Shown here in pieces: positions 7,522-38,911 of a DNA stretch of 50,628 nucleotides. The DNA is from Patescibacteria group bacterium (GTDB taxonomy: Bacteria > Patescibacteriota > Minisyncoccia > Minisyncoccales > Staskawiczbacteraceae). The position numbers and the translations under genes are program-made. Each line of letters opens with the position of its first letter. The stretch's first letter is position 1. Under the pieces are notes generated by a model. The model worked only from the letters and a program-made list of their open reading frames with translations, was not told the DNA's origin and did no database searches. The stretch spans positions 1 through 50,628 of the forward strand of contig JAHIOM010000036.1 in assembly GCA_018895235.1 (NCBI GenBank), written 5' to 3'.

Positions 7522-10113
7522 ATGCCTCAGCAATTTCTCTACGAACAATTAGATGGTGCTTCAAAAATGGGGCTTCTTAAAAAGGAAGTTCCGGATTTTT
7601 TGGTTGAAAACTTGAATCCAAATTTTGAATTGAGAGGATATCAAAAAGAGGCATTCGCGAGATTTTTTCATTGCTATAATGGCGATTATGAGAATAAAGA
7701 ATATCCTCTACATTTTCTTTTTAATATGGCCACGGGTTCCGGAAAAACCTTAATAATGGCAGGGCTCATTTTATATTTATACGAGCAGGGCTATCGTAAT
7801 TTTTTATTTTTTGTTAATTCAACGAATATTATTGAAAAAACCAAAGACAATTTTTTGAATAATTTATCCAGTAAATATTTATTTAATGACAAGATATTTT
7901 TCGATAACAAACAGGTTCAAATTAAACAAGTTGACAATTTTGACGGAACGAGCAATCAAGATATCAATATTTGTTTTACTACTATCCAAAAGTTGCACGG
8001 TGATTTATACAACGAAAAAGAAAACTCTTTAACTTCGGAAGATTTTAAGAATAAAAAAATAGTTTTGCTTGCCGATGAGGCGCATCATAGCCAAGTACAA
8101 ACCAGAAATGGCCAAAGAGAAATATTTGAGAAGCCGAATTGGGAGAATACAGTTGAAAAGATTTTCAAACAAAATACCAGTAATCTACTTTTAGAATTTA
8201 CGGCCACACTTGATTTGTCTCAGAGAGAAATAAATGAAAAATATAGAAATAAGATTATTTATAAATACGATCTAAAAGAGTTTAGAAATGATGGCTATTC
8301 AAAAGACGTGGAATTGTTGCATACAGATACGGATAGGCGAGATAGGATAATTCAAGCCATAATCTTAAGTCAATACAGGCAGGAAGTTGCTGGTAAACAT
8401 GGAATTAATCTTAAACCGGTAATTCTATTTAAAGCCCAGAAAACAATAGCCCAATCGGAAGATAACAAGAAATTGTTTCATAAAATAATAGAAAGTCTGT
8501 CAGTAAAGGATATTGAGGGTACCAGAAAAAGAAGCAATATAGAAATTTTGCAAAAAGCGTTCAGTTTTTTTAAGGAGAATAAAATTAGTAATACTATTTT
8601 AGTTAAAAAGCTAAAAGATGGTTTTGCTGAAAACAAAACGTTAAGCGTTAACGAAGAACAAGAAAAGGAAAAATATCAATTACTTCTAAACTCTCTTGAA
8701 GATAAAAACAATCAAATTAGAGCAATTTTTGCGGTACAGAAGCTGAATGAAGGTTGGGATGTATTGAATTTATTTGATATTGTCCGGCTTTATGAAACAA
8801 GGGATGGTAAAAATAACAGGCCAGGGAAGACTACGATTTCCGAAGCTCAATTAATTGGCCGTGGCGCTCGTTATTTTCCATTTAAATTAAGTGAAACAGA
8901 TGATAAATTTAAACGCAAATATGATAAAGAATTACAAAATGAATTAAGAGTTCTGGAAGAGCTGCATTATCATAGCCATAATGAGTCAAGATATATATCA
9001 GAAATTAGGATAGCTTTAGTCGAAGAAGGGATGATTGATGAAAACGAATTGGAGGTCGAATTAAAAATGAAAGAAGAGTTCAAAAAAACACCTTTTTATA
9101 AATCTGGACTAATTTATGCAAACGAAAAAATAAAGAGAAGTTTTGAAAAAGTTAAATCCCTTGATGATTTGGGCGTGAAGAAAAAAAATATAGTGACTCG
9201 AATTATGTCTGGCGGCGGTATGACAACTGCATTATTTGAAAAAGGTTTAGTTATGAAAGAAGGAGTACAAAGAGTTAGGGAGGATTTTAAGATTAAAAAT
9301 TTTGAACCACATATTGTTAAAAATGCTTTAACTAGGAATGAATTTTTTAATTTTTCTTCGTTAAAGAATTACTTTCCGAAATTAACCTCGATTAGAGAGT
9401 TTATTGAAAGTGATAAATATCTAGCTAATTTTGGCATTACTTTCGAGATGGAAAGGTATGCGACTGCGATAGATAATTTAGAGAAATTCAAAGCCATTAT
9501 TAAGTTATTAGAGCAAATAGAAGGAGAAATAAAAGAAAATTTAACAGAATATATTGGGAGCGAAGAATTTACTCCGACTTTTATAAAAAATCACAGAATT
9601 TCTAAAGATAAGAAAATTAAAGTTAAAAAAGACAGCGAGAGATTAGATGGACAGGAAGAATTTTTAGAGGATAAAGATTGGTATGTCTTTAATGCGAACT
9701 ATGGCACTAGTCAGGAAAAAGATTTTGTTAAAATGTTTGCTAGCCAGATAAATGATTTGCGAAGGAAATTTAAGCAGATCTATTTATTCCGCAACGAAAA
9801 ACAATTGAAAATTTATAACTTTAGCAATGGCCAAGCATTTGAACCTGATTATCTTTTATTCCTAGTTAATAAAGTAGGAAATAGCATTACTTATCAGTTG
9901 TTTTTAGAGCCCAAGGGTAAGTATCTAGTCGAAGGCGAAAAATGGAAGAATCAATTTTTAGAGAACATTAGAGATAAATTCAAAGATAAAATTCTGGAAT
10001 TTTCAAAATCAAAAAAATATAAAATCACTGGGGTACCATTTTATCAGAGTGAAAATGAAAATGAGTTTAAGAGAAAATTATTGGAAACCATAGGAATAAA
10101 CTCGAAAAATTAA
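7522..10113 (+). CDS. res: Type III restriction endonuclease/helicase (Res)
   Basis: MATGSGKT, DEAHH, QLIGRGARY, C-terminal FEPDY...FLEPKG nuclease motif. Confidence 0.9.
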   Translation: MPQQFLYEQLDGASKMGLLKKEVPDFLVENLNPNFELRGYQKEAFARFFHCYNGDYENKEYPLHFLFNMATGSGKTLIMAGLILYLYEQGYRNFLFFVNSTNIIEKTKDNFLNNLSSKYLFNDKIFFDNKQVQIKQVDNFDGTSNQDINICFTTIQKLHGDLYNEKENSLTSEDFKNKKIVLLADEAHHSQVQTRNGQREIFEKPNWENTVEKIFKQNTSNLLLEFTATLDLSQREINEKYRNKIIYKYDLKEFRNDGYSKDVELLHTDTDRRDRIIQAIILSQYRQEVAGKHGINLKPVILFKAQKTIAQSEDNKKLFHKIIESLSVKDIEGTRKRSNIEILQKAFSFFKENKISNTILVKKLKDGFAENKTLSVNEEQEKEKYQLLLNSLEDKNNQIRAIFAVQKLNEGWDVLNLFDIVRLYETRDGKNNRPGKTTISEAQLIGRGARYFPFKLSETDDKFKRKYDKELQNELRVLEELHYHSHNESRYISEIRIALVEEGMIDENELEVELKMKEEFKKTPFYKSGLIYANEKIKRSFEKVKSLDDLGVKKKNIVTRIMSGGGMTTALFEKGLVMKEGVQRVREDFKIKNFEPHIVKNALTRNEFFNFSSLKNYFPKLTSIREFIESDKYLANFGITFEMERYATAIDNLEKFKAIIKLLEQIEGEIKENLTEYIGSEEFTPTFIKNHRISKDKKIKVKKDSERLDGQEEFLEDKDWYVFNANYGTSQEKDFVKMFASQINDLRRKFKQIYLFRNEKQLKIYNFSNGQAFEPDYLLFLVNKVGNSITYQLFLEPKGKYLVEGEKWKNQFLENIRDKFKDKILEFSKSKKYKITGVPFYQSENENEFKRKLLETIGINSKN

Positions 10114-10116
10114 TTG

Positions 10117-10155
10117 ACCCCAGTTAAATATTGGCTTTGCCAATTTAACGGGGCA
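10117..10155. repeat. Bulged-hairpin mini-element, family A, copy 1
   Basis: ACCCC-A-GTTAAATATTGGC-TTT-GCCAATTTAAC-GGGGCA; near-identical copy at 10962-11000. Confidence 0.8.
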
Positions 10156-10217
10156 AGGAATAAAAATTATGGGAAATTTGTTAAATTTTAACTCAAACAA
10201 ATTACAAACAAAAGGCC

Positions 10218-10298
10218 TTGACAGGGGTCCTGAGTTTGCTATAATTATAATAGTTAATCCCACCGCCCTCTCGGTTTACCGGGACGGCGGTTTTTTTT
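10218..10298 (+). promoter_or_regulatory. Promoter plus terminator-ended leader (putative sRNA) preceding an NYN gene
   Basis: TTGACA(10218)-16 bp-TATAAT(10240) with TGC extension; hairpin ACCGCC..GGCGGT 10262-10291, then a T-run directly before the ATG. Confidence 0.65.
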
Positions 10299-10859
10299 AT
10301 GAAAAGAGCATTCGTCTTTATTGACGGCGGTAATTTTTATTTTAAATTAAAAGATTTAACATCTAAATTAGATGGAAAATATAGTTTGCTTGATTTTGAA
10401 TTTAGAAAATTTGCCGAATGGTTAGTTACGCCAAACGAATTATTAGAAATTAGGTATTATCTCGGAGCGATTAAGCGCGAACGCAACAATCCAAAGAGCG
10501 AACAGTTATATGCAAATCAGCAAAAACTTATTGGAAAACTCCAGCAGCAGAATATTATTATCACCTTGGGTCATGTTATCCGCCACCCAGACAAAACCCA
10601 CCACGAGAAAGGTGTCGATGTCCGTTTAGCGGTAGAAATGATTAAATTTGCCAGAGAGAATAAGTATGATATTGCTTATTTGGTGAGTTCTGATACGGAT
10701 TTAGTAGCAGCGGTTGAAGAAGTCCGGGCCTTTGGCAAAAAAGTTCAATATGTAGGAATTCCTAAGGGCCAATCGTATGGTCTTTCAACTGTTGCTGACG
10801 ATGTTAGATTATTACGGCCGGAAGAAATAGAACAATTTTTACCTCCGTCGCTTATATAA
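10299..10859 (+). CDS. NYN domain (LabA/DUF88, PIN-like) putative RNase
   Basis: FIDGGNF, EKGVDVRLAVEM, SSDTDL acidic motifs. Confidence 0.9.
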   Translation: MKRAFVFIDGGNFYFKLKDLTSKLDGKYSLLDFEFRKFAEWLVTPNELLEIRYYLGAIKRERNNPKSEQLYANQQKLIGKLQQQNIIITLGHVIRHPDKTHHEKGVDVRLAVEMIKFARENKYDIAYLVSSDTDLVAAVEEVRAFGKKVQYVGIPKGQSYGLSTVADDVRLLRPEEIEQFLPPSLI

Positions 10860-10904
10860 AAATTAAGAAAAATAGCGTTAGCTCTATTTTTAACAAAAAC
10901 TCGA

Positions 10905-11041
10905 ACCCTTCGATGGTTCGACAGGCTCACCACAGACAAACTCAGGGCAAGAAATTAATTGACCCCAGTTAAATATTGGCTTCGTCAATTTAACAGGGCA
11001 AGGGAACCCTAGTAGAAGAAACGAAGTTTCTCTACGGGGTA
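10905..11041. repeat. Stack of four mini-elements at one junction
   Basis: ACCCTTCGA..CAAACTCAGGGCA (10905-10949) containing TGGTTCGACAGGCTCACCACA (10914-10934); family A copies at 10962-11000 and 11006-11041. Confidence 0.8.
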
Positions 11042-11084
11042 AGTAAAAATTATGGAAGATAAAATTTTTGGAGATAAATAATCC

Positions 11085-12926
11085 ATGAAAGAAAAAATTA
11101 GGAAAATAAAAAACAGAAAAAATTGGCATTTCGACAAATACTTGGAGAAAATTAAAGTCTTAGCGGTTTCACGTCGAACCGTTATTTTAGTAGTAATTAT
11201 TTCTTTTCTAACTGTTGCAGGAATTAGTTATGGCGCAATTGGCTACCATAAAATATCAAAAGCGATAGAACAAGCCAGACAATTTACAAAAGAAGAAAAA
11301 TTTGAGGAAGCGATTAATGAACTAGGTCTCGCTCAAATTAGCGGGGTTGTTAAAATAGGAATAAAAAAGCAGGAAATTAATAATGAAATAGAAAAAAATA
11401 AAAAGCTTATTGAAGAAAAATCAAAATATAATAATGCATTGAGCGAACTTAATGAAGAAAGTTATCAAAAGGCAATTAGTTCTTTTTCAAATATTACTGA
11501 AGACTCTCTTTATTATCAAAAAGCCCAAACCAAAATAGAAGAAGCAAAGAGGAAAATGGTAGAAGGGAAACTTTCTGAAGAACAAGTAGCTCGAAAATCA
11601 GCAGAAGTAAAAGCGAAACAAGAAGAATTTGAAAAAAATTTAAAAGAGAAGCAACTAGCGGATAAGGCTGCGGAAGAAAAAATGATGAATACTGACAATG
11701 ATGGCGATAGCCTAACTTATAGAAGAGAATTAGAGTTAGGAACTTCTGATTGGAATATTGATTCTGATGGTGATGGAATAATTGATAGTAAAGACACTCA
11801 TCCAGCTGGTGGAGGACGAAATATACCCCAAACATTTGCTTGGAATTATGGCGGATATAATTGGACTTTTACAACATCAATTGCCGAAGATTGGTACGAC
11901 TATTATAAGGCTAAACCTCGGCTTCCCGCGACTAGCGTAGAGTATATAACTTATAATGACCCATTTATACAAAGAATAAGTAATAAAATACTTGAAGAGT
12001 CTAAAAAAGATAATCTTTGCGAAGCTTGTTTGGCCGCCGCATTTATACAAAGTCTTCCATATATCGAGGATGTATATACCGGTTACGACGAATACCCGAA
12101 ATATCCAATTGAAACCTTTTTCGAAAAGAACGGAGATTGCGAGGACACTAGTTATCTTACAGCTTCTATTATTTTAGCAATGAATATAGATGCTGTTCTT
12201 ATTTTACTCCCAGGACATATGGCGGTTGGTGTTTGGGCAAATTGTGATAATCCTGGCACATATTATAAATTAGGGGATAAATGTTACTACTATATTGAAA
12301 CAACAGGAGATGGTTTTAAATTGGGTGATATACCAAATGAATATCGTTATACTGCCGCCACATTAGTAAAAATTCCTTCTGGAGAAAATATTGCCGTAGC
12401 TCCACAATATAAAAAGCCGTGTGACCCATCGCCGTACTTCATCGGATATTATTATAGCGGAGCTGATTTCTATTCAGATGCCCAATGCAATTATCAAACC
12501 AATTGCTTGCCATGGTCTAGTTATGTTTCAGCTTCTTCTCTTTCCGGATATTATTATAATTCTCAGTTAGAACAAACATATCATGACTCATCTTGTACTC
12601 AGATAGCAGTTAAGGGATGCTATAAATCAAAAACCTATTCAGGATATTTTTACAAATCAGGACTTGCCTGGTATTACGATTCTCAATGTACTCAAACATA
12701 TCAATCTATGACCTGTAGCTATCCCTATTCCTATGTTTATTCTTGTACAACTGAAAGCGGCTATAACTCTAAAAAAAGCAACTGTGATTATTATGCTTCG
12801 TCAGAGTATCTTAAGTCTTTAGCAGAAAGTTGTTATGCCGGACTCGATAAGTGTAGAAGTGATATAAATGAGTACCAAAGTAAGCTGAATGAATATAATG
12901 CGTGTACGGCCAGGAAAGAATATTAA
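11085..12926 (+). CDS. Membrane-anchored multidomain protein: helical/coiled-coil, Ca-binding TSP3-like repeat, transglutaminase-like domain, Cys/Tyr-rich repeats
   Basis: TM segment; DNDGDSL/DSDGDGIID; GDCEDTSYL..GHMAVG; three YY..D..C repeats near the C-terminus. Confidence 0.7.
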   Translation: MKEKIRKIKNRKNWHFDKYLEKIKVLAVSRRTVILVVIISFLTVAGISYGAIGYHKISKAIEQARQFTKEEKFEEAINELGLAQISGVVKIGIKKQEINNEIEKNKKLIEEKSKYNNALSELNEESYQKAISSFSNITEDSLYYQKAQTKIEEAKRKMVEGKLSEEQVARKSAEVKAKQEEFEKNLKEKQLADKAAEEKMMNTDNDGDSLTYRRELELGTSDWNIDSDGDGIIDSKDTHPAGGGRNIPQTFAWNYGGYNWTFTTSIAEDWYDYYKAKPRLPATSVEYITYNDPFIQRISNKILEESKKDNLCEACLAAAFIQSLPYIEDVYTGYDEYPKYPIETFFEKNGDCEDTSYLTASIILAMNIDAVLILLPGHMAVGVWANCDNPGTYYKLGDKCYYYIETTGDGFKLGDIPNEYRYTAATLVKIPSGENIAVAPQYKKPCDPSPYFIGYYYSGADFYSDAQCNYQTNCLPWSSYVSASSLSGYYYNSQLEQTYHDSSCTQIAVKGCYKSKTYSGYFYKSGLAWYYDSQCTQTYQSMTCSYPYSYVYSCTTESGYNSKKSNCDYYASSEYLKSLAESCYAGLDKCRSDINEYQSKLNEYNACTARKEY

Positions 12927-13135
12927 TTTCTCTGTTTCGTGTTTTTAAAATTAGAAAAATCATCAAGGAAGATTACGGAAAAGAAATTTCTGATAAAGAA
13001 GTTAGTAAAATAGGCAACGGCCTCATTAATTATTTTAAATTATCTTTGGGAAATTAACAGCAGGAGAAAATTTTATAAAAAATAGTGTTAACCATGGTTT
13101 TAGTTGGAAAAATTTTCTTTAAAATTTAAAAAGAA

Positions 13136-13645
13136 ATGAAATTAAAAATCATTCCGTATAATAAAAACGTTTCGGAAAGATTTAAAAAAGAGAAGAAAAA
13201 GATTTTAAGAGTTGTTAGAAGGTGCAAGGTTTGGCATATTGGAAGTACTGCGACACCAGGTTTAGGAGGCAAAGGAATTGTTGATATAATGCTTGGAATA
13301 AAAAATTGGAAATATCCGGAAAGTACAATTAAAAAATTAAAAAAGATAGGCTTTAAACACATTCATTCTAAAGAAAAGGGAAGAATTTTTTTGAGCAAAA
13401 ACAAGACGCTTTCTTTGGGTAATATCCACATTCATATTGTCAAAATAGGAAGCAAAACCCAAAAAGAGATTTTGTATTTTAGAGATTATTTAAGGAAAAA
13501 TAAAAAAGAGGCTGAAAGATATTTTAATTTTAAAAAGAAATGGCTAAAAGAATCTTGTAGAAATAGAAAAAAATACAAAAAACTAAAATCTAAATATATT
13601 AACAAGGTTTTATATGGCAAGAAATTAATTAAAAATAATAAATAA
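13136..13645 (+). CDS. GrpB family protein
   Basis: HIGSTATPG..GKGIVDIM, HIHIV, FRDYLR. Confidence 0.85.
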   Translation: MKLKIIPYNKNVSERFKKEKKKILRVVRRCKVWHIGSTATPGLGGKGIVDIMLGIKNWKYPESTIKKLKKIGFKHIHSKEKGRIFLSKNKTLSLGNIHIHIVKIGSKTQKEILYFRDYLRKNKKEAERYFNFKKKWLKESCRNRKKYKKLKSKYINKVLYGKKLIKNNK

Positions 13646-13646
13646 T

Positions 13647-13958
13647 ATGGAATTTAAAGAAATTCAAAAAAAGGTAATTGATAACGCCATCAATTATGGG
13701 AAAAAATACAACGTAAAAATTGATGAAGATTTTGCATTATTTAAATTATATGAAGAGGTGGGGGAATTGGCTCAAGATGTTTTAATTCATAGAAAAAAAT
13801 GCAGACCCGAAAAATATCTTCCGGAAGAAAAATCAAAAGAAGAATTAGCAAAAGAACTTGCAGACGTTTTAGGAATGATAATAGTAAATGCTCATCTTTT
13901 AGACATTGATTTAGAGGATGCAATAAATAAAAAGTGGATTAACAAAGAAAAAAGTTAA
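13647..13958 (+). CDS. MazG-like NTP pyrophosphohydrolase, copy 1
   Basis: KLYEEVGELAQ...ELADVL acidic motif. Confidence 0.8.
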   Translation: MEFKEIQKKVIDNAINYGKKYNVKIDEDFALFKLYEEVGELAQDVLIHRKKCRPEKYLPEEKSKEELAKELADVLGMIIVNAHLLDIDLEDAINKKWINKEKS

Positions 13959-14175
13959 AATAATCAAAATTTAGGCCGAAGTTGAATTATGAAGAAGTAT
14001 TCGTCAAATCGTGCGCAAAAAGGAAAAACTGCTTACCGGACGCCAAGCCGGTTTATTTATAAAATGACGCTTAAATCTATAAAAAATAAATGCAGAATTC
14101 CTCGATAAACTAAACAAAGTTAAACTTAATCAAATTAAGTACAAGTCGCCGAATTATAGAAAAGAGAATTAATTG

Positions 14176-14240
14176 ACCCATCACTGCCAACCCACCACTA
14201 CCAAAAATTGGTGTAGGGGTAAAAATTTGGTGTGAGGGCG
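14176..14240. repeat. Family A element with a sibling nested in its loop
   Basis: ACCCATCACTGCCA[ACCCACCACTACCAAAAATTGGTGTAGGGGTA 14190-14221]AAAATTTGGTGTGAGGGCG. Confidence 0.75.
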
Positions 14241-14317
14241 AGGTCGAAGTTTAAGAAATTTATGATAAAATTAAAGTAATGACTGCCCTTTTTCTAAAAA
14301 ATCAAATAACAACCAAC

Positions 14318-14866
14318 ATGATTTATGTTTTTATAGACGCATCAAATGTTTGGAACGCGGTCAAGTCGGTAAAAAAGTTTATTGAATACAAAACTCTTAA
14401 AGATTATTTTAGGAAAAATTTTAACGCAGACAAGGTTGAAATTTTTTATTACGACGCTTATCCAAAAGCCGGAACAAGAGATTATGACTTGGGTGGAAAG
14501 CATAAGTTCTTTACTTATCTTAAGAAAGGGCTTGGGTTTACCGTAAGAAAAAAAGAGTTAAAAAGAATCTCTGTTATTGGCGAGAGCGGAGAATCTATTA
14601 TAGAAAAAGGAAATATGGATGTGGAAATAACGATTGACGCAATGCATAACATTCATAAATATAACATAGCCATCTTTTTTAGCGGTGACGCTGATTTTCT
14701 TGCACTGGTGAATTATCTGAAAAATAACGGTAAAAAGGTCTATATTTTTTCGTCAAAAGACAATATTTCTCACGAACTAAAAACTGGCGGGGATGGTTAT
14801 TTTGATTTGAAAGATATACATGAATTTTGGGGTAAAGATTTAAAACACCGCGAAAAATTAGTATAA
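14318..14866 (+). CDS. NYN domain putative RNase, copy 2 (divergent; ORF track start 14279)
   Basis: FIDASN, KGNMDVEITID, SGDADF. Confidence 0.9.
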   Translation: MIYVFIDASNVWNAVKSVKKFIEYKTLKDYFRKNFNADKVEIFYYDAYPKAGTRDYDLGGKHKFFTYLKKGLGFTVRKKELKRISVIGESGESIIEKGNMDVEITIDAMHNIHKYNIAIFFSGDADFLALVNYLKNNGKKVYIFSSKDNISHELKTGGDGYFDLKDIHEFWGKDLKHREKLV

Positions 14867-14867
14867 A

Positions 14868-14975
14868 CGAAAACCACCCTCAATTAAGAGGGTGGCCCTA
14901 GGATGTATAACCCTAACGGTTCTATGGAAGAACCGAAAGACGATTTAAGTATAGCAAGCCATAAGGGTTTGTCAA
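14868..14975 (-). ncRNA. Putative small RNA transcription unit convergent with NYN copy 2
   Basis: Minus-strand TTGACA(14975-14970)-16 bp-TATACT(14953-14948) with TGC extension; internal hairpins; terminal hairpin CCACCCTC/GAGGGTGG plus T-rich tail. Confidence 0.55.
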
Positions 14976-14992
14976 GAGTTGAAAATAATCCA

Positions 14993-15032
14993 ACCCCAGT
15001 AGTAGTCCCGTTAAGCGGGACACTACGTGGCA
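14993..15032. repeat. Family A element
   Basis: ACCCC-A-GTAGTAGTCCCG-TTAAG-CGGGACACTAC-GTGGCA, followed by AGTAAAATTATG. Confidence 0.75.
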
Positions 15033-15041
15033 AGTAAAATT

Positions 15042-15371
15042 ATGGAAAAAGAAGGACAAAAAAACCAAATTATTCCAAAAATTGAAGAGTTTTTTAAAGT
15101 ACCAGAGCGAGTGGCTGATAAAATTAAAATTATTGCGGAAAAGGTTAGGGGTGGTTATGTTGTGATTGAAACTAGACCTCGTTGGGATGGAACTCCTGGG
15201 CCTTGGACAAGAAGTCCAGTTGCTAAATTTGTTTTTCATAATCCCTCTTTGTCATGGAGACTTTATTGGATGCGTGCTTCTGGGAAATGGTGGTTTTATG
15301 GAACTTATAAAACATTAGATAAAGTATTGAAAATAATAAAAGGAGATAAAGACGGCTGTTTTTGGGGTTAA
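15042..15371 (+). CDS. DUF3024-like protein
   Basis: PVAKFVF...WRLYWMRASGKW; start placed at the AAAATTATG context. Confidence 0.7.
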   Translation: MEKEGQKNQIIPKIEEFFKVPERVADKIKIIAEKVRGGYVVIETRPRWDGTPGPWTRSPVAKFVFHNPSLSWRLYWMRASGKWWFYGTYKTLDKVLKIIKGDKDGCFWG

Positions 15372-15384
15372 AAATAAAAAAATA

Positions 15385-16290
15385 ATGAAAAAGTTTTTTG
15401 AGAAAAATAAAATATTTTTGGCGATTGTGGTTGGAGCTTTAATTATTGGCGGAGCGATTTATTTATCCAGTATAAATAGGGGAGAGGTTGCTGAGAAATC
15501 ACCGGCGACAGGAGAAAATTGCCAGAATATCCCCGAACTTCCGGATAATACCTTAAAATTGGCGACGAAAATTATTGACGGCGATACTTTTTTGATTGAG
15601 GGCGGCGCTTCAGTAAGAATTTTGGGAATTGACGCTGACGAAAGGGGATATCCTTGTTATGATGCAGCGAAAAATAAATTGGAAGAACTTATTTTGAACA
15701 AAGAAGTAAAATTAGAAAAAGGTCCGGAAAATATCGACCAGTACTGCCGCTATCTAAGATATGTTATTTCTGATGGTCAGAATATCTCTTTGGAGCTGGT
15801 AAAAGAGGGGATGGCAGTGGCGAGATTTTCTCCAGAAGGCACAAAATACCGCGAAGAAATCACTCAAGCCGAAAAAGAAGCCAAAGAGAATAAAGTTGGC
15901 TGCAAGTGGTCTGCCTCCATTGTTCCAGACAGCGGAGTTATGGAGAATAAAGAATTTCAATGGGAAAAGTTAACCCCGGAATTAACGGGACTAAAGGTTA
16001 TTGGCGCCTGTAGCGCCGGTAATTATTACGGGAGGGAGGTAATTGTTGAGGGAAAAATTGCTGATGCTTATTGTTCAAAAACCAATACTGTATTTTTAAA
16101 TTTTGAAAAACCATATCCGAATCATTGCTTTGTCGGAGTGATTTTCAGTTCAGACCAGTATAAATTTGTCCAAAATCCTGAAAATTATTACTCAAATAAA
16201 AATGTTAGAATAAGAGGTGAAATTAAAGAATACCAAGGAAAGCCGGAAATTATTCTAAATGATCCGTCTCAAATCGAAATCGGCAAGTAA
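15385..16290 (+). CDS. Membrane-anchored thermonuclease (SNase) with C-terminal OB-like domain
   Basis: IIDGDTF, VRILGIDADE, DQYCRYLRYV; C-terminal IRGEIKEYQGKPEII. Confidence 0.85.
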   Translation: MKKFFEKNKIFLAIVVGALIIGGAIYLSSINRGEVAEKSPATGENCQNIPELPDNTLKLATKIIDGDTFLIEGGASVRILGIDADERGYPCYDAAKNKLEELILNKEVKLEKGPENIDQYCRYLRYVISDGQNISLELVKEGMAVARFSPEGTKYREEITQAEKEAKENKVGCKWSASIVPDSGVMENKEFQWEKLTPELTGLKVIGACSAGNYYGREVIVEGKIADAYCSKTNTVFLNFEKPYPNHCFVGVIFSSDQYKFVQNPENYYSNKNVRIRGEIKEYQGKPEIILNDPSQIEIGK

Positions 16291-16301
16291 AAATTAAAAA
16301 T

Positions 16302-16961
16302 ATGAAAAACCCAGAACAAGTTCCGAATCAAGAATTAGAGATTAATCCAAAGAAAGAAATAAGCCCAGAGTTAGTTAGGGCTATAGAACAAGAAGCTCTT
16401 CATGTAGATGATAAAGTTAATATACTTTTAACTAAAGCTGGCTTAAAACCAGCCTCGGAGATTACTCTAACTATAAGGACTTGGAACGAGGAAGAAAATA
16501 ACAAGCATATGGCAGAAGACGATATTCAAAGAGATGTTTGGATTATTAAAGAATTAGGGATACCGGTTCAATTCGGAAGCAGAGAAGTTGTTGAGATAGT
16601 GGAAGATAACAAAAAATATCATCGCGAAGAAATACGAATTTTAATAGGGAAAACCCAAAAAGATTTAGATTTTCTTATAGAAGCGCAGAAATCTAAAGAT
16701 AATGAACTATTGGGTAGGGCGTATGGATTTCCGTCCACCGCCGTAGATGCCTGGGTGGGGAAGGGGAAAAAACTTGACGTTAGAAGGTTGCCTAAAAAGA
16801 TTAGAGAGAGCGAAGCGATGCTTTTTTCTTCTCCAACGCTTTCGGCAGATAATTGGCGAAAGGAAATTGAACAGGGGCAACGAGACGCAGATTATATCAA
16901 GGGTATAAGCCCTTTTATTTATAAAGAATTGATAGAGATGATGAAAAGAAGCAGGAAATAA
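16302..16961 (+). CDS. Hypothetical protein
   Basis: 219-aa ORF containing GRAYGFPSTAV. Confidence 0.6.
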   Translation: MKNPEQVPNQELEINPKKEISPELVRAIEQEALHVDDKVNILLTKAGLKPASEITLTIRTWNEEENNKHMAEDDIQRDVWIIKELGIPVQFGSREVVEIVEDNKKYHREEIRILIGKTQKDLDFLIEAQKSKDNELLGRAYGFPSTAVDAWVGKGKKLDVRRLPKKIRESEAMLFSSPTLSADNWRKEIEQGQRDADYIKGISPFIYKELIEMMKRSRK

Positions 16962-17024
16962 CTTTTTGTACCATTGAAAAGTTGAAAAGGGGTCAGGAGC
17001 CTTTTCTTAATAAAAATTAATTAA

Positions 17025-17062
17025 GCCCCGCAAAATAGCAGTGATACTGCCATCGCGGGGCA
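17025..17062. repeat. Family A-like hairpin element
   Basis: GCCCCGC..GCAGT-GAT-ACTGC..GCGGGGCA, between AAAATTAATTAA and AGTAAAAATTATG. Confidence 0.65.
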
Positions 17063-17072
17063 AGTAAAAATT

Positions 17073-17744
17073 ATGGATGAAAAATTTCAAAAAATTAAAG
17101 AGGTAGTTGAGAAAGAACTTTCTTGTTCTGCTCATAGTATGGACCACGTTATGAGGGTCTATAACCTGTCTTTACATTTTGCTAAAAATGAAGACGTGGA
17201 TTCGGATGTATTAAAGGCGTCTGCCTTATTACATGATATCGCCAGAGTAAAAGAAGATAATGATTCTACGGGAAACACTGACCATGCAATTTTAAGCTCA
17301 AAAATGGCAGAGCCGATTTTAAGAGAGCTTGGATTTTCTGAAGAAAAAATTAAGCATATCCAAGATTGTATTATTTCACATAGATACAGAACGGGAAACA
17401 AGCCAAAAACAAAGGAAGCTCAGATTCTGTTTGACGCAGATAAATTAGATGTCGTAGGAGCCATTGGCATTGCCCGAAGTTTTGTTTGGGTTGGTAGAAA
17501 TAATGCTAAGATTTATGCCGATGTAAATATTGATGAATATATTAAAGATAATTTAGGAGGGAAAATCAATGGAAGAATACAGGACAAAACCAAACATAGT
17601 CCGCAAATAGAATTTGAAACAAAGTTGAAGTTTTTAACGGATAAATTATATACTGACAAAGCTAAAACAATAGGCAAAGAAAGATCAGGGTTCTATAAAA
17701 GTTTTTTAGATAGATTAGAAAAAGAAATCAATGGCGAATTGTAG
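17073..17744 (+). CDS. HD-domain phosphohydrolase
   Basis: HSMDHVMRV, LLHDIAR, SHRY, DADKLD. Confidence 0.9.
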   Translation: MDEKFQKIKEVVEKELSCSAHSMDHVMRVYNLSLHFAKNEDVDSDVLKASALLHDIARVKEDNDSTGNTDHAILSSKMAEPILRELGFSEEKIKHIQDCIISHRYRTGNKPKTKEAQILFDADKLDVVGAIGIARSFVWVGRNNAKIYADVNIDEYIKDNLGGKINGRIQDKTKHSPQIEFETKLKFLTDKLYTDKAKTIGKERSGFYKSFLDRLEKEINGEL

Positions 17745-17753
17745 TTTAAAAAT

Positions 17754-18161
17754 ATGATTATAACTATTTGTGGATCAATAAAATTCTTTGAACAAATGCT
17801 TGAGGTGAAGAGCAATCTTGAGAAAATTGGGCATACCGTCCTCATGCCTATAAAAGCAGACGGTGTTGACTACTGGTCAGAAGATAGTGCCGGCAGAGTT
17901 GAGGCAAAGAAAAAATTTGAATTTATTTCGGAACATATGAACAAGATAAAAAAGTCAGACGCAGTTCTAGTGGTAAATGTTACAAAAGGAGATATTAAAA
18001 ACTATATAGGAGCGAACACGTTTCTTGAGATTGGTTTTGCGCATTACATAAATAAAAAAATTTATCTGTTTAACGAAATTCCTAATCAAAAATATATTGA
18101 GGATGAAATTCTGACTATAGAGCCGATTGTACTAAATGGCGATTTAAGTAAAATAACCTGA
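17754..18161 (+). CDS. Hypothetical protein, possibly nucleoside 2-deoxyribosyltransferase-like fold
   Basis: ITICGS...SDAVLVVN...YIGANTFLEIGFA; family assignment from recall only. Confidence 0.45.
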   Translation: MIITICGSIKFFEQMLEVKSNLEKIGHTVLMPIKADGVDYWSEDSAGRVEAKKKFEFISEHMNKIKKSDAVLVVNVTKGDIKNYIGANTFLEIGFAHYINKKIYLFNEIPNQKYIEDEILTIEPIVLNGDLSKIT

Positions 18162-18204
18162 TAAAAAGAAAATATTGTTAGCTCTGGTTTTAATAAAAAC
18201 TCGG

Positions 18205-18226
18205 ACCCTTCGACAAGCTCAGGGCA
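18205..18226. repeat. REP-like element ACCCTTCGACAAGCTCAGGGCA (family B)
   Basis: Matches the outer element at 10905-10949 and the variant at 19252-19272. Confidence 0.75.
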
Positions 18227-18251
18227 AGAAATTAATTGAGGAATAAAATTT

Positions 18252-18998
18252 ATGATGATAGGCTATAATTTAGACAAAATAAAATTCGCTACGGACACAG
18301 CGACTTTTGAAAAGGCGGTTGAAATTTATGAATCGGACGGAGTAAAAAACTTTGAATTTGTCGGTTTGGGATTTTCCGCAAAGGTAAGGGGAAGCAAGGG
18401 GGATTTTTATAATGTTTTTGTATCTGCGAAACATTACGACAGGGGAAACTGCGATTGCTATCTCGGCCAAAATGAGACGCTTTGCAAACATTTAGTGGCC
18501 CTTGCGATTTACGTTGTTATGCGAGGCGATAAATTAAACGCGGAAGATAAAAAAACAATCAGCTCGCCCGAATGTAGCGAACGGTTGGGCGAATTAAGCA
18601 AAGAAGAATTGACTCGGATAAAAAAAGATATTGCGTTGGCAATGAAATACATAAAATCGTACACGGGGCCATCAAAGATTTGGTTTGCTTATCAGGATTC
18701 GCTTTGTGAAGGTTGCGCCCGTTTATCTAAAATAGTTTCAGAGTTGCCCGTGAGCGAGCAGATGGCAAAATTATTGGTTGATATGCTTTTGCGTCTTGAT
18801 AAAAAAATATCTTATGGTGTTGATGATTCAGACGGAACAGTGGGCGGATTTATTGAGGAAGTGGTTTTAATGCTTCAGGAATTTGTAAAAATTGATTCAA
18901 AATGTATCAGGGCGTTTAAAAAACTTTGCGGAAAAGAGACTATGTTTGGCTGGGAAGAACCGCTGGCAAAAATATTTGACGAGCAGGATATTGACTGA
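18252..18998 (+). CDS. SWIM zinc-finger protein
   Basis: CDCYLGQNETLCKHLVAL (CxC..CxH). Confidence 0.8.
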   Translation: MMIGYNLDKIKFATDTATFEKAVEIYESDGVKNFEFVGLGFSAKVRGSKGDFYNVFVSAKHYDRGNCDCYLGQNETLCKHLVALAIYVVMRGDKLNAEDKKTISSPECSERLGELSKEELTRIKKDIALAMKYIKSYTGPSKIWFAYQDSLCEGCARLSKIVSELPVSEQMAKLLVDMLLRLDKKISYGVDDSDGTVGGFIEEVVLMLQEFVKIDSKCIRAFKKLCGKETMFGWEEPLAKIFDEQDID

Positions 18999-19060
18999 CC
19001 GGGCAGGGCTAAACAGAGTTATGGAAAAATGGTGTCAACTCTGGTTTTTTACCCCGGTAG

Positions 19061-19165
19061 TTAAAAAAGGAGCTTAATATTGAGGAGGACGAGGAATCTG
19101 ATAGAGAGGATAAAGAAGAGGATAAAGAAGACGAATCAGTAAATCCTAAAGATATACCATTTTAA
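19061..19165 (+). pseudogene. 5'-truncated acidic tail remnant ending DIPF
   Basis: LKKELNIEEDEESDREDKEEDKEDESVNPKDIPF*; no start codon; begins right after a half family-A element (ACCCCGGTAG 19051-19060). Confidence 0.5.
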
Positions 19166-19251
19166 TTCCTGCCTCGCCTCAAAACAGACGGGTGAAAAAG
19201 TTTCTCCTACGTTGAAGATTCGGATGGACTACGGAAGGGCAGGGAAATTAA

Positions 19252-19310
19252 TCCCTCGATAAACTCGGGACAAGTTGACCCATCACTACTAAAATTTGGT
19301 ATTGAGGGCA
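19252..19310. repeat. Family B variant plus family A element
   Basis: TCCCTCGATAAACTCGGGACA (19252-19272); ACCCATCACTACTAAAATTTGGTATTGAGGGCA (19278-19310). Confidence 0.7.
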
Positions 19311-19342
19311 AGGAAATAAAATAAATTTTAATTTAGAATAAT

Positions 19343-20059
19343 ATGGAATTTGAAAAAGAAATTATTAGAGAAGAACAAGAAAGTTTAGATTTAGAAAAAG
19401 AGGTTGAAAAATTTGAAAAAAATTCAGAAAAATTAAAATTTTTAATTTCAACCATTGATAAATTAACATTTCCAGAAAACCCTCTGCCCGTGGAAGAAAA
19501 TGAAAATATTGGAGGGGTTCTTCCTGATGGCAAGATTTTTCCATTTAGAGCAAGATATAGTTTTTCTGAAAAAGATGGTCGAGTAATAAAAGAAAATTAT
19601 GAAGTTAATAATGTAGAACTAGATAAACGGCATTTAGAGTTTGGCATTTTTTTAAGTTTGGCAGTTCATGAGGTTAGGCATAGAGTGCAATGGACTAAAG
19701 AAAGAGAAAAAACTGAGTTTGAAATCTTTACCGAAAATGACCTTTCAGACTTTTTGGGGGAAACGTCGGAGATTCGGTCTTTAAAGAATTATTCAAAAAT
19801 ACAAAGATATTTAGAAATTAGAAAAGATCTTGCTGGAGATAGTGAAAGCTTTGACAAAGAAATAGATGCCATGATCATCGGTATTTTAGCTGAAATTTTA
19901 TTTAAAAAAAGAAAGGATATTTCAACTATTTCGGGGTTTGTTAAAAGTGATGATAAAGAAAAAATTTTAAAAGAAATTGGTGAGAATAAGAAAGAACTAT
20001 TAGAGGTAATTTCATCAAGGATAGAAGGTAATTTTTTGTATAAAAATGGTGAAAAATAG
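19343..20059 (+). CDS. Hypothetical protein with HExxH motif
   Basis: AVHEVRHRVQW and a downstream EIDA. Confidence 0.55.
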   Translation: MEFEKEIIREEQESLDLEKEVEKFEKNSEKLKFLISTIDKLTFPENPLPVEENENIGGVLPDGKIFPFRARYSFSEKDGRVIKENYEVNNVELDKRHLEFGIFLSLAVHEVRHRVQWTKEREKTEFEIFTENDLSDFLGETSEIRSLKNYSKIQRYLEIRKDLAGDSESFDKEIDAMIIGILAEILFKKRKDISTISGFVKSDDKEKILKEIGENKKELLEVISSRIEGNFLYKNGEK

Positions 20060-20094
20060 GAAAAAAATAATGTCAACTGTCGAAAAATTAATTG

Positions 20095-20128
20095 ACCCGT
20101 CACTACCAATTTTATTGGTGTGAGGGCA
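20095..20128. repeat. Family A element
   Basis: ACCC-G-TCACTACCAA-TTTTA-TTGGTGTGA-GGGCA after AAAAATTAATTG. Confidence 0.75.
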
Positions 20129-20150
20129 AGGGAATAAAAATTATAAAAAT

Positions 20151-20462
20151 ATGGAATTTAAAGAAATTCAAAAAAAGGTAATTAATAACGCCATCAATTA
20201 TGGGAAAAAATACAACGTAAAAATTGATGAAGATTTTGCATTATTTAAATTATATGAAGAGGTAGGCGAATTAGCGCAGTCTGTCTTAATACATAGGAAA
20301 AAGTGCAGACCCGAAAAATATCTTCCAGAAGAAAAATCAAAAGAAGAATTAGCAAAAGAGCTTGCAGATGTTTTAGGAATGATAATAGTAAATGCTTATC
20401 TTTTAGATATTGATTTAGAAGACGCAATAAATAGAAAGTGGATTAATAAAGAAAAGGGTTAG
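20151..20462 (+). CDS. MazG-like NTP pyrophosphohydrolase, copy 2
   Basis: Same length as 13647-13958; about 6 of 103 residues differ by visual comparison. Confidence 0.8.
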   Translation: MEFKEIQKKVINNAINYGKKYNVKIDEDFALFKLYEEVGELAQSVLIHRKKCRPEKYLPEEKSKEELAKELADVLGMIIVNAYLLDIDLEDAINRKWINKEKG

Positions 20463-20477
20463 ACCAAACAGGTTTTA

Positions 20478-20511
20478 ACCCCAGTAGAAGAACAAAGCTC
20501 TCTACGGGGCA
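20478..20511. repeat. Family A element
   Basis: ACCCC-A-GTAGAAGAACAAAGCTCTCTAC-GGGGCA; sibling of 11006-11041. Confidence 0.75.
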
Positions 20512-20521
20512 AATAAAAATT

Positions 20522-21733: not shown

Positions 21734-21765
21734 TAGTTTCCAAGGAGTAAGAAATTAATTGAGGA

Positions 21766-21805
21766 ACCCCGGTAGTAGCCCGCCTCAGGCGGATACTACG
21801 GGGCA
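21766..21805. repeat. Family A element in the xseA leader
   Basis: ACCCC-G-GTAGTAGCCCGCC-TCA-GGCGGATACTAC-GGGGCA. Confidence 0.75.
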
Positions 21806-21815
21806 AGTAAAAATT

Positions 21816-23093
21816 ATGGCAAATAATACAGATAAAAAAGAGGATAAAATATTTTCTATTTCAGAATACATTGGATTTCTTAACTCAGAATTAAAAAAAT
21901 GTGCGGCAAAAATTATTGGAGAGGTTGGCAAAGTAGATATTTATCCGAGCGGCCATGTTTATTTTTCGTTAAGAGACGAAAAAGACAAAAGTGTGATTAG
22001 TTGTATAATTTGGAAATCACAATATAAATTATTTGGTATTGAAATAAAAGAGGGCGTTAAGATTATTGCAACTGGTCGTCCGGATATATATAAACAAACG
22101 GGACGACTTTCTTTTATAGCCGAAACAATTGAACTTGCAGGAGAGGGTATATTAAAGAAAGAATATGAAAAATTGAAGAAAAAATTAGGCGACGAAGGAA
22201 TTTTTGAAGAGAGTAAAAAAAGATCTATCCCAGCATATCCTCAAAAGATAGGAATAATTACTTCAAAACAGGGAGCAGTTCTATCAGATTTTCTAAGTAA
22301 TATTGGCAATTATGGTTTTAAAATTAAAATGGTTGATTCCAGAGTCGAGGGACAATCATCTATTACAGATTTACTATCAGCCATTAAGATCATTAAGAAA
22401 AAAGATATCGAAGTTTTGATTATTATGAGGGGTGGCGGTTCTTTCGAATCATTACAGCCGTTTAATAACGAATTATTGGTTAGAGAAGTTGCAAATTTTC
22501 CTGTTCCGGTAATTGCTGCTATCGGTCACGACAAAGATGTGCCGTTAGTTTCCTTAGCCGCAGATCTTGAAGTTTCTACTCCAAGTATTGCCGCCATTAC
22601 GCTCAGTAAATCATGGAAGGAAGCCATTATATTTTTAGAAAGATATGAAAGAAATATTATTGGCGGATATGAAAATATTTTGCAGGACGCCGTTTCTTTA
22701 ATTAATAAATCAATTGATATGGTCCGCGATTCTAAGAACCTGATTATTGACAAGTACAAAAGGGTTGAAAATAAAATGAGAGTTTCACTCCAAAATTTTA
22801 GCAATATCCTTAATAATATTAGTTTAAGGATAGATAATTTAATAGATAGATCTTTTTTTGGCTTAAAATATTTAATTTTAACGGCGCAACAAAATTTAAA
22901 ACACGCTGAGAGAATTATTTCAATTAACAGTCCAGAACGTCAACTTAATTTGGGCTATAGTATTGCCTTTTCTGATGGTAAAATAATCAGAAATACGGAA
23001 GATACTGAAATAGGAAAAAATATAGACCTTCGAGTTGTAGACGGAACAATTATTTCACAAGTAAAAAATATTAATAAAATTAACAAAAAATAA
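21816..23093 (+). CDS. xseA: Exodeoxyribonuclease VII large subunit
   Basis: SGHVYFSLRD, RGGGSFESL, IGHDKD; start placed at AAAATTATG. Confidence 0.95.
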   Translation: MANNTDKKEDKIFSISEYIGFLNSELKKCAAKIIGEVGKVDIYPSGHVYFSLRDEKDKSVISCIIWKSQYKLFGIEIKEGVKIIATGRPDIYKQTGRLSFIAETIELAGEGILKKEYEKLKKKLGDEGIFEESKKRSIPAYPQKIGIITSKQGAVLSDFLSNIGNYGFKIKMVDSRVEGQSSITDLLSAIKIIKKKDIEVLIIMRGGGSFESLQPFNNELLVREVANFPVPVIAAIGHDKDVPLVSLAADLEVSTPSIAAITLSKSWKEAIIFLERYERNIIGGYENILQDAVSLINKSIDMVRDSKNLIIDKYKRVENKMRVSLQNFSNILNNISLRIDNLIDRSFFGLKYLILTAQQNLKHAERIISINSPERQLNLGYSIAFSDGKIIRNTEDTEIGKNIDLRVVDGTIISQVKNINKINKK

Positions 23094-38028: not shown

Positions 38029-38911
38029 GAAAAAACTGCTTTTTGGGGAAAAATTAAATAAGGAATTTACCCCGGTTGAATGCCAGCGGGCAATTCCGCC
38101 AAAGCGGAATTATTCAACTGGGTTTACGCTCACAGAAATCATTATTGTCACCGCAATTTTTACGATAATTGCTGGAGTTATTTTTTCAGCTATTATTTAC
38201 AGCCAAAAATCCTATGCGCTCGGAGGGAACGTCGCCCAAAGCATCCAAAACGGCAGGGTAATTATAGAAAGAATATCAAGGGAAATCCGTCAGGCAAAAA
38301 AAATTATTACCCCTTTGCCGGAGGAAAGAATTAACCCTTCCGGTGAAATTAATTTCCAGGACGGCCACCTGTTAGAGATTTTGGAAGAAGACCAGGCACA
38401 AGGAGGAAGTAATAATACAATTACCCTGTCTTTAAACGCCCAGAATAGCAATGATTATTACAAAGATTTTTTTATTAAAATAATAAGCGGCTCTGGAAGC
38501 GAACAAATAAGAAAGATTACAAATTATGACGGGATTTCAAAAACAGCGCAGGTAGACCAAAATTGGACAATTACTCCGGATGTTACCTCGTTTTATAAAA
38601 TAGACAGTTCTTTTTATTACATCCATTACTATCGCGACGCAAATAATAATATTTTAAGGAAGGTGACTACCTGCTGTTTTTCAGAGGACTTTTTAACATG
38701 CGTTTCCCCCGAAACCTACGTTTCTTGTATTGCAACTCCGCCGGAGAACCAGACCCTTTTGGAAATAGCTTTGGAATCTCCCAGAATAATTGGCGAATAC
38801 GTCAGTAATTTGGAATTTTACGGCGCAAGAGTCATTAATATCTTTATGGAACTGAATATAAAAAACCAAACTATGCAATTAGAAACCAAAATATTCGGCA
38901 GAAATTTATGA
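38027..38911 (+). CDS. PilW-like minor pilin with in-frame palindrome in the leader
   Basis: EFT-PVECQRAIPPKRNYSTG-FTLTEII. Confidence 0.8.
   Translation: MKKLLFGEKLNKEFTPVECQRAIPPKRNYSTGFTLTEIIIVTAIFTIIAGVIFSAIIYSQKSYALGGNVAQSIQNGRVIIERISREIRQAKKIITPLPEERINPSGEINFQDGHLLEILEEDQAQGGSNNTITLSLNAQNSNDYYKDFFIKIISGSGSEQIRKITNYDGISKTAQVDQNWTITPDVTSFYKIDSSFYYIHYYRDANNNILRKVTTCCFSEDFLTCVSPETYVSCIATPPENQTLLEIALESPRIIGEYVSNLEFYGARVINIFMELNIKNQTMQLETKIFGRNL

Follow-up and report, generated by a model that had tools for sequence, protein, structure and literature searches.

Hairpin insertions in an accessory-gene array of a Patescibacteria genome share their arms with tiny GIY-YIG nuclease genes

Hairpin repeats that accompany a small nuclease gene have been described for the Ssn proteins, single-domain GIY-YIG proteins of about 94 amino acids (CDD family cd10448), which bind a directional hairpin repeat of 20-50 nt, termed NTS or SRM, exclusively when it is single-stranded DNA, and which cleave immediately upstream of the repeat (Chenal et al., Nat Commun 2025, PMC11893778). 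Repeats of the NTS/SRM type flank the majority of ssn genes, different homologues prefer their own repeats, and the repeat-gene-repeat layout has been likened to that of an insertion sequence, mobility of Ssn being left as a hypothesis (PMC11893778). Here we describe short bulged hairpins in a contig of 50,628 nucleotides (JAHIOM010000036.1 of assembly GCA_018895235.1; the whole contig is called the window below) from a bacterium of the Patescibacteria group, for which the Ssn nuclease with its SRM/NTS repeats is the closest known system. These hairpins are discrete insertions, and they are probably the gene-less members of families whose full-length members carry a nuclease gene. The window is contig C36 of an 837-kb assembly (G000; 40 contigs, about 36% G+C) from groundwater metagenomes and was compared with 41 related genomes (G numbers) and with metagenome loci (L numbers).

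The likeness to Ssn/SRM, judged from genes and repeats, extends to several features. The proteins are single-domain GIY-YIG proteins of roughly 70-95 amino acids, their genes are flanked by inverted-repeat sequences that are also present as many gene-less intergenic copies, and the repeats are directional by virtue of a conserved non-palindromic flank. Also, protein clades pair with different repeats, and the repeats cluster around accessory genes. In contrast to Ssn/SRM, the gene lies here between the two halves of one inverted repeat and not between two complete hairpins, at least four protein-repeat pairs exist in a single genome of 0.84 Mb, copies are counted in tens and not in hundreds, and insertion is evidenced by empty sites.

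On the + strand of the window, between 10.1 and 21.8 kb, 12 discrete units of the form CCC(C)-bulged stem-GGG(G)-YAAG are seated in a common junction backbone. The pattern ACCC-N18-45-GGGCA occurs nine times where 3.4 occurrences are expected, and none of 100 shuffles reaches nine. Families are labelled by stem type, i.e., GTTAAAT for A, TCAC for B, and GTAG for C; a preliminary description of this DNA had taken these strings for loops, whereas they are stem sequences. Family A is found at 10117-10157 (ACCCCAGTTAAAT..TTTAACGGGG with a CAAG tail; -11.5 kcal/mol, z -4.4), between the stop codon of the res gene and the cassette of an NYN gene, and in a second copy at 10962-11002 (slot 2 of the junction), which is 94% identical to the first. 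Family B comprises a hairpin at 20095-20130 (CCCGTCACTACCAA..TTGGTGTGAGGG with CAAG, slot 2; -9.0 kcal/mol, z -5.2), a weaker copy at 19278-19312 (-3.9 kcal/mol, z -1.4) preceded by a D-like motif at about 19253-19274, and a hairpin at 14176-14242 that holds a second family B hairpin (14190-14221) in its loop. Members of family C are located at 11006-11043 (CCCTAGTAGAAGAA..TCTCTACGGGG with TAAG, slot 3), at 14993-15034 upstream of a DUF3024 gene (CCCCAGTAGTAG..CACTACGTGG with CAAG; -11.5 kcal/mol, z -4.7), at 20478-20513 upstream of a NUDIX gene, and at 21766-21807 upstream of xseA (slot 3; -13.9 kcal/mol, z -4.7). A hairpin of another subfamily (GCCCCGC..GCGGGGC with AAG) follows AAATTAATTAA at 17024-17064 (-12.3 kcal/mol, z -4.6). 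Type D (CCCTTC..GACAAACTCAGGGCAAG) occupies slot 1 at 18205-18228 in uninterrupted form and at 10905-10951 with a 23-nt internal insertion (10912-10934), the two copies aligning with each other. The family B copies starting at 14176 and 19278, the family C copies at 14993 and 20478, the 17024 hairpin and the D-like motif are additions to the earlier list. Outside this range, the window carries a further family A copy in the form of a three-way junction (38071-38122).

Of the nine single elements of the A, B, C and 17024 types, eight fold with -5.8 to -13.9 kcal/mol as single-stranded DNA, at z values between -2.7 and -5.2. A one-base 5' bulge after CCC(C) is common to all nine, in agreement with the unpaired base described previously. 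The nested B pair at 14176 folds with -10.0 kcal/mol (z -0.95). Type D (CCCTTCGACAAGCTCAGGGCAAG; -1.7 kcal/mol, z -0.6) is not a stable hairpin, contrary to what had been proposed for the element in that slot. The units are directional, their strand being marked in the window copies by the YAAG 3' tail together with the 5' bulge and in family A by a TTCA..TAAA mismatch. All 12 window copies lie in gene sense; among the cassette loci, CAAG is the commonest 3' tail and 40 copies are oriented in gene sense versus 13 in the opposite one. The stems are followed by CAAG, TAAG or TAAA and no T-run is seen, so that these units do not resemble intrinsic terminators.

The preliminary description had recognized an insertion family, and in this respect the discrete insertions, the nested copy and the empty homologous and orthologous sites bear it out, but its limits ACCC...GGGCA have to be replaced: the unit that excises cleanly is CCC...GGG plus the 3' tail YAAG. 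Removal of such a unit from 21745-21820 leaves a sequence that differs from the empty junction at 18228 by one mismatch, and removal from 10095-10175 yields the consensus junction as it occurs in metagenomes. No duplicated bases are left upon excision, and no exact target rule was found at these sites. Since A or G repeats at both junctions, the limits of the unit are ambiguous by 1-2 bases.

The spacers of the array share a backbone composed roughly of AAAAACTCG(A/G)A, AGAAATTAATTGA, and GGAATAAAA(A/T)TTATG in this order. More generally, a conserved 36-nt junction (AAAAAGTCGAA, GAATTAATTGA, and GAAATAAAATTATG, in succession) separates accessory-gene cassettes in G000 and related Patescibacteria, and units sit in it at two or three fixed points; within G000 the full junction with hairpins is confined to the array, and its short parts occur elsewhere too. 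The filled and empty sites that had been quoted for the window are all present in the sequence. The junction at 18230-18254 (AAATTAATTGAGGAATAAAATTTATG) has slots 2 and 3 vacant, and the backbone at 10095-10116 (AAACTCGA followed by AAAATTAATTG), which overlaps the end of res, has slot 1 vacant; the latter, previously counted as a third slot, is empty at 10098-10108 and filled at 18205-18228 and 10905-10951. If spacer 18160-18260 is compared with spacer 10862-11062, the whole backbone aligns, and the difference consists of the A unit, the C unit, and the 23-nt insert inside D. Similarly, once the inner B copy is removed from 14176-14242, the outer hairpin and a B copy of contig C8 agree in 30 of 35 positions.

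Metagenomic versions of the NYN cassette extend this comparison. The NYN gene at 10299-10859 returned 80 metagenome loci, 59 of them at 79-95% protein identity and with many different neighbours in groundwater metagenomes, and the conserved promoter and leader of the cassette allow both flanking junctions to be compared across loci. In L174 the upstream junction reads GAATTAATTGA directly followed by GAAATAAAATTATGG and is empty where the window holds its A hairpin, and at that position or close to it other versions have a hairpin of B type (L163, L182, and L147), of C type (L149) or of another kind. The upstream junction is likewise empty in L129, L138, and L158, and in L164 the downstream junction shows the backbone of the window with none of its three slots filled. 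In about 30 metagenome versions of this cassette the junctions are either empty or filled with different hairpin families, the units being of A, B, C or D type, and over the cassette loci about 24 of some 35 occurrences of the junction motif are empty and about 11 filled, as counted by eye from the listing. The cassette itself (10156-10298 plus 10299-10859; L129-L187) has its own promoter of the TTGACA-17-TATAAT type, and its leader contains a conserved terminator-like hairpin, which closes with a T-run that abuts the start codon.

In the core genome, orthologous sites were compared between genera of one family. The nearest relatives lack xseA, so there is no orthologous comparison upstream of that gene, and sites at rplC and rny were used. 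In G000 the rpsJ-rplC spacer holds an A unit and a unit of another family, F, and the same backbone occurs without them in G021, G012, and G011. An A-like unit in the clpP-rny spacer is present only in G000 and missing in all 11 readable relatives. At the rny stop codon of G000, a long C unit (C7:77394-77462) has its start within the last codons; it is absent in G003, whose RNase Y is 83% identical, as well as in G011 and G021, and other C-like hairpins occur at this very codon of rny in G007 (L219) and G004 (L221, contig C24, downstream of rny). The orthologous presence/absence patterns that the preliminary description had called for are therefore found at three sites, and the paralogous, NYN-cassette and orthologous filled and empty sites together establish that the hairpins are insertions. 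As to rny itself, its last codons have been entered by C-like hairpins in three genera, the arm supplying ..GCC CGG TAG/TAA. In G004 the old end of rny (TATGCGAGATAA) persists directly 3' of the hairpin, suggestive of either a replacement gene end brought by the insert or a 5-nt TATGC repeat.

No candidate enzyme gene is located in the window, as had been noted before, and the description of the hairpins as non-autonomous elements is upheld. Elsewhere in G000, four GIY-YIG open reading frames (ORFs) of 79-95 amino acids match PF01541 over nearly their whole length; NCBIfam assigns the four to no family besides GIY-YIG, and among proteins of solved structure 1zg2 and 1ywl, small members of UPF0213, come closest, nothing more precise being obtained. 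The gene at C10:22983-23186 lies between TTCA-CCCGGTTAAATAAT and TTATTTAACTGGG-TAAA, which are family A arms, and the 3' arm encodes the last residues of the nuclease and its stop codon. At least 13 gene-less family A copies share their terminal arms with this gene-bearing unit. The gene at C8:31776-31946 is situated between CCCCGCCCCCTA and TAGGGGGCGGGG (family F arms), the one at C15:3888-4088, truncated at its 3' end by the limit of the contig, directly follows TTGACCCTTCACCC (family E arm), and 6 nt ahead of the start of that at C11:72479-72694 there is a D motif in reverse complement. The latter gene fits tightly between two tRNA genes and overlaps with its last codons the start of the downstream tRNA.

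PF01541 matches occur in 35 of the 41 related genomes, with up to eight per genome if uvrC-sized ORFs are counted in, and 74 GIY-YIG loci from relatives were examined for their flanks. Family A arms flank GIY-YIG genes also in G020 and in one metagenome contig, family B arms (CCCCCACACCA..TGGTGTGGGGG) in G015, G038, and G011, and family C arms (CCGGTAGTAGAATTTCG..CGAAATTCACTACGGG) in G007; GIY-YIG genes are likewise bracketed by E arms in G002, by F arms in G024, and by arms in G029. A full unit measures about 300 bp and consists of inverted arms of 12-25 nt around one gene for 70-95 amino acids. In a maximum-likelihood tree of 60 GIY-YIG proteins, arm types A, B, E, and F correspond to one clade each (support 100/99, 98/97, 100/99, and 99/89, respectively). 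A-clade genes are present in three of the nine genomes with A hairpins and in none of the 32 without them (Fisher p about 0.008, calculated by hand). As tiny GIY-YIG genes lie between arms of types A, B, C, E, and F, and as the type of arm goes with the protein clade, a GIY-YIG partner, whose co-occurrence the preliminary description had suggested checking, fits.

Family A hairpins were detected by pattern search in nine of the 41 related genomes, with up to 14 copies each. Their usual form is a three-way junction composed of an almost invariant outer stem (CCCNGTTAAAT/ATTTAACNGGG) and two variable inner helices. Across 32 copies, nine of the 11 outer-stem pairs are invariant, and double changes, i.e., covariation, are seen at every pair of the two inner helices. 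Cells are paired in 94.8% of cases, versus 78.7% with shuffled partners and 33-48% with slid partners, and the covariation score is 0.415, versus 0.136 with shuffled and 0.09 or less with slid partners. With empty sites at hand and covarying stems in family A, the two kinds of evidence whose absence would have pointed to independent terminators or RNA-processing hairpins are both present. A riboswitch or leader function of family A was considered and rejected, as the downstream genes are unrelated; judged by eye from translations, they include a long thyX-like ORF, a NUDIX-like ORF, cysS, rny, rpsI, and genes for membrane proteins.

Two further settings deserve description. In G009 (C2:38339-38539; L012/L091), an E-clade GIY-YIG gene with a 3' CTTCACCTTAAGGTGAAG hairpin lies inside the rpsJ-rplC spacer and starts 5 nt past the S10 stop codon. 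In about 15 genera, the S10-L3 spacer contains GTTAACTT, a variable hairpin, TAACAACATTGCC, and then a GGGCAAT..GCCCAG hairpin with a T-run (L006, L007, L009, L010, L012, L014, L015, L018, L019, L022, L024, L026-L028, and L031), and this conserved element looks like an undescribed ribosomal-protein leader or attenuator. The rpsJ-rplC spacer of G000 and its nearest relatives differs from it.

The hairpin-bearing array itself adjoins a type III restriction-modification pair (4.7-10.1 kb) and extends from 10.3 to 21.7 kb as a same-strand series of unrelated accessory genes ending at xseA-xseB. Their order is NYN, a protein of 613 amino acids without assigned function, GrpB, MazG, NYN, DUF3024, SNase-like, HD, deoxyribosyltransferase-like, SWIM, MazG, NUDIX, and DUF3800. 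The MazG-like genes at 13647-13958 and 20151-20462 are 93% identical over 300 nt, indicating a recent cassette duplication within the array. ORF scans of 4.7-25.0 kb, which included no search aimed at integrases, turned up no recombinase domain. Two conserved motifs that do not fold, AAAAAGTCGAAGAATTAATTGAGAAATAAAATTATG and AATCAAAATTTAGGCCGAAGTTGA, part the cassettes (10095-10116, 13956-14000, and 18190-18254; L164:697-16060, L135, and L148), nine motifs of the AAAAAGTCGAAGAATTAATTGAGAAATAAAATTATG type occurring within 16 kb in L164. The AAAAAGTCGAAGAATTAATTGAGAAATAAAATTATG motif has a stop codon in each of the three frames and, after them, a string resembling a ribosome-binding site and ATG, and these non-folding motifs are better candidates for cassette joints than the hairpins. 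The segment 10916-10949 (GGTTCGACAGGCTCACCACAGACAAACTCAGGGCA; 3' part of the nested insert plus 3' half of D) is also present with unrelated flanks on contigs of about 260-480x depth from the same samples, so D-type motifs are shared with other, more abundant organisms. A literature search on such repeats in Patescibacteria (candidate phyla radiation, CPR), or on the sequence of the D motif, found nothing relevant.

What best accounts for these observations, with a probability of roughly 0.6 in our estimation, is that the hairpins of the window belong, as members without a gene, to hairpin families linked to a nuclease. Full-length members would carry one tiny single-domain GIY-YIG gene between two arms, and in the gene-less copies the same arms would close a short hairpin or, in family A, a three-way junction. 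By analogy with Ssn, each nuclease might recognize the hairpin that belongs to it, in folded form and on one strand, with the strand being defined by the 5' bulge together with the YAAG tail, and a nick by the nuclease followed by host repair, or by copying from a filled site, could spread hairpins in trans. The observations underneath are presence and absence at homologous and orthologous sites, nesting, shared arms, the tracking of arm type with protein clade, and covarying structure; recognition as single-stranded DNA, the site of the cut, the chemistry of insertion, and whether the nuclease drives the spread or rides in the hairpin are matters that we infer.

Several points weigh against this interpretation. 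The chemistry of GIY-YIG enzymes is DNA hydrolysis, and strand joining is not known for them; therefore the insertion (joining) step is left without a known catalyst. G036, with 14 family A copies, and G025, with six, lack an A-clade gene, and G025 lacks any GIY-YIG match; a nuclease gene with B or C arms is absent from the 40 contigs of G000. Gene-bearing B arms differ from the bulged B copies of the window by one base and two bulges, and the term cognate therefore holds at the level of families only. The covariation of the inner helices could in part reflect swaps of whole small palindromes, for which the observed nesting is a precedent, and not compensatory substitution. Likewise, gene conversion between copies of the 36-nt junction may explain the repeated use of the same slots, instead of a choice of site by an enzyme. 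Finally, the assembled contigs from public sequencing runs, which end inside hairpin repeats, reveal no presence/absence variants within a population.

A more far-reaching version of this interpretation, which we regard as tentative and put clearly below even odds, is that the units of about 300 bp are autonomous mobile elements in which a hydrolytic, hairpin-specific nuclease for single-stranded DNA takes the place of a transposase, the hairpins of 24-45 nt being riders comparable to MITEs (miniature inverted-repeat transposable elements); insertion would be precise and free of duplication at sites partly resembling the arms, such as the rny stop codon (GCCNGGTAG). As in MITEs (Correia/NEMIS, RUP, and ERIC) and Rickettsia palindromic elements, the miniature copies keep the terminal inverted repeats of the longer element, fold as hairpins and are tolerated beside or inside genes. 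The sharing of terminal inverted repeats by which MITEs are recognized is found for A within G000 and for B, C, E, and F with partners in relatives. Unlike MITEs, the hairpins are far smaller, cause no target duplication, and have a full-length partner that encodes no known transposase but only a GIY-YIG nuclease.

Among the rival explanations, the strongest reverses the order of events: the hairpins came first and spread by other means, the GIY-YIG genes are homing genes that invaded the loops of cognate hairpins, and gene-less copies are vacant targets. In its favour, GIY-YIG homing endonucleases that stand alone form a recognized class, the position of the gene is without exception precisely between the arms, in several genomes numerous hairpins occur without a matching gene, and the pairing of arm type with protein clade is to be expected either way. 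However, the gene-less A copies are not plainly empty, as they hold two conserved covarying inner helices, and the nuclease gene of the A unit receives its last codons and stop codon from the 3' arm, which points to a co-adapted unit. Homing would moreover leave the demonstrated hairpin insertions without a mechanism, and we consider it improbable, though worth serious attention.

The preliminary description had linked the hairpins to HUH enzymes, i.e., to movement of REP- or PATE-like hairpins as single-stranded DNA by a Y1 transposase such as the TnpA of IS200/IS605 or a RAYT. Duplication-free insertion and bulged directional hairpins are typical of IS200/IS605, and like IS200/IS605 with its PATEs and the REP/REPIN-RAYT systems, the elements described here are short imperfect intergenic hairpins with strand asymmetry and no target duplication, non-autonomous copies having a single-gene partner. 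G000 does encode one intact IS200-like TnpA of about 143 amino acids, its sole Y1 gene (C11:68206-68568). However, that gene is flanked on both sides by CCCCGCC..GGCGGGG hairpins (C11:68120-68680) unlike families A-D, and the IS200 of G018 carries yet another pair of end hairpins. Y1 genes occur in six of the nine family A genomes versus 25 of 41 overall, i.e., without enrichment, and no constant tetranucleotide was found 5' of the insertions at cassette-locus junctions. The arms match GIY-YIG units instead, so that the partner is not an HUH tyrosine enzyme, and the copies are single and co-oriented, not inverted doublets as in REP/REPIN. With a TnpA that has unrelated ends of its own and no co-occurrence of Y1 genes with the repeats, this candidate partner was rejected, and we hold the explanation to be very unlikely.

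Slightly less credible still is the view that the hairpins are functional RNA structures, such as processing sites, 5' stabilisers or terminators, which arose in place or are kept for operon expression and are not mobile. All window copies lie in gene sense 15-25 nt upstream of start codons, family A copies elsewhere are found 6-150 nt upstream of starts and mostly in gene sense, and the CAAG tail next to GAA creates an AAGGA string similar to a Shine-Dalgarno sequence. Against such a view, the same sequences recur at unrelated loci and in other genera while orthologous sites are empty, one copy is nested in another, several units can follow in tandem, the downstream genes are unrelated, and the stems lack a 3' T-run. 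Rfam searches of the whole window at the gathering score and of 9.9-22 kb at E values up to 5 gave only two tRNAs and matches at chance level, none of them to the hairpins. Use by the host at the RNA level is possible as a secondary effect and cannot account for the distribution.

Least probable of all is an origin of the array in an integron-like cassette system for which the hairpins would be recombination sites similar to attC, as the former comparison with IntI and attC implied: the array does consist of unrelated same-strand accessory genes (NYN, GrpB, MazG, NUDIX, HD, and SNase), the NYN gene does behave as a cassette in metagenomes, and hairpins with extrahelical bases do sit at cassette joints as in the attC class, which is read as folded single strands, but the stem order GTTAAAT...ATTTAAC is the reverse of RYYYAAC...GTTRRRY, hairpins are missing from about two thirds of the homologous junctions and number two or three in others, hairpins occur outside arrays in core operons too, and a conserved non-folding motif is the better joint candidate, so that this reading was rejected on stem order and on junction occupancy (0-3 hairpins per junction).

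If the hairpins are indeed nuclease-linked, the consequences reach beyond this array. A mobile origin of Ssn/SRM had previously only been suggested, and here hairpins are seen in comparative data to have entered defined sites; several nuclease-hairpin pairs side by side in a genome of 0.84 Mb make nuclease-driven spread of repeats testable, and each pair is a potential sequence-specific tool for cutting single-stranded DNA. For the annotation of ultra-small bacteria it matters that such inserts come to lie between promoters, ribosome-binding sites and start codons and inside ribosomal-protein operons, and that they break short-read assemblies at the points of insertion. Should the units of about 300 bp prove autonomous, they would be the smallest self-contained mobile DNA described, and the Ssn/SRM systems of many bacteria would have a selfish, transposon-like origin.

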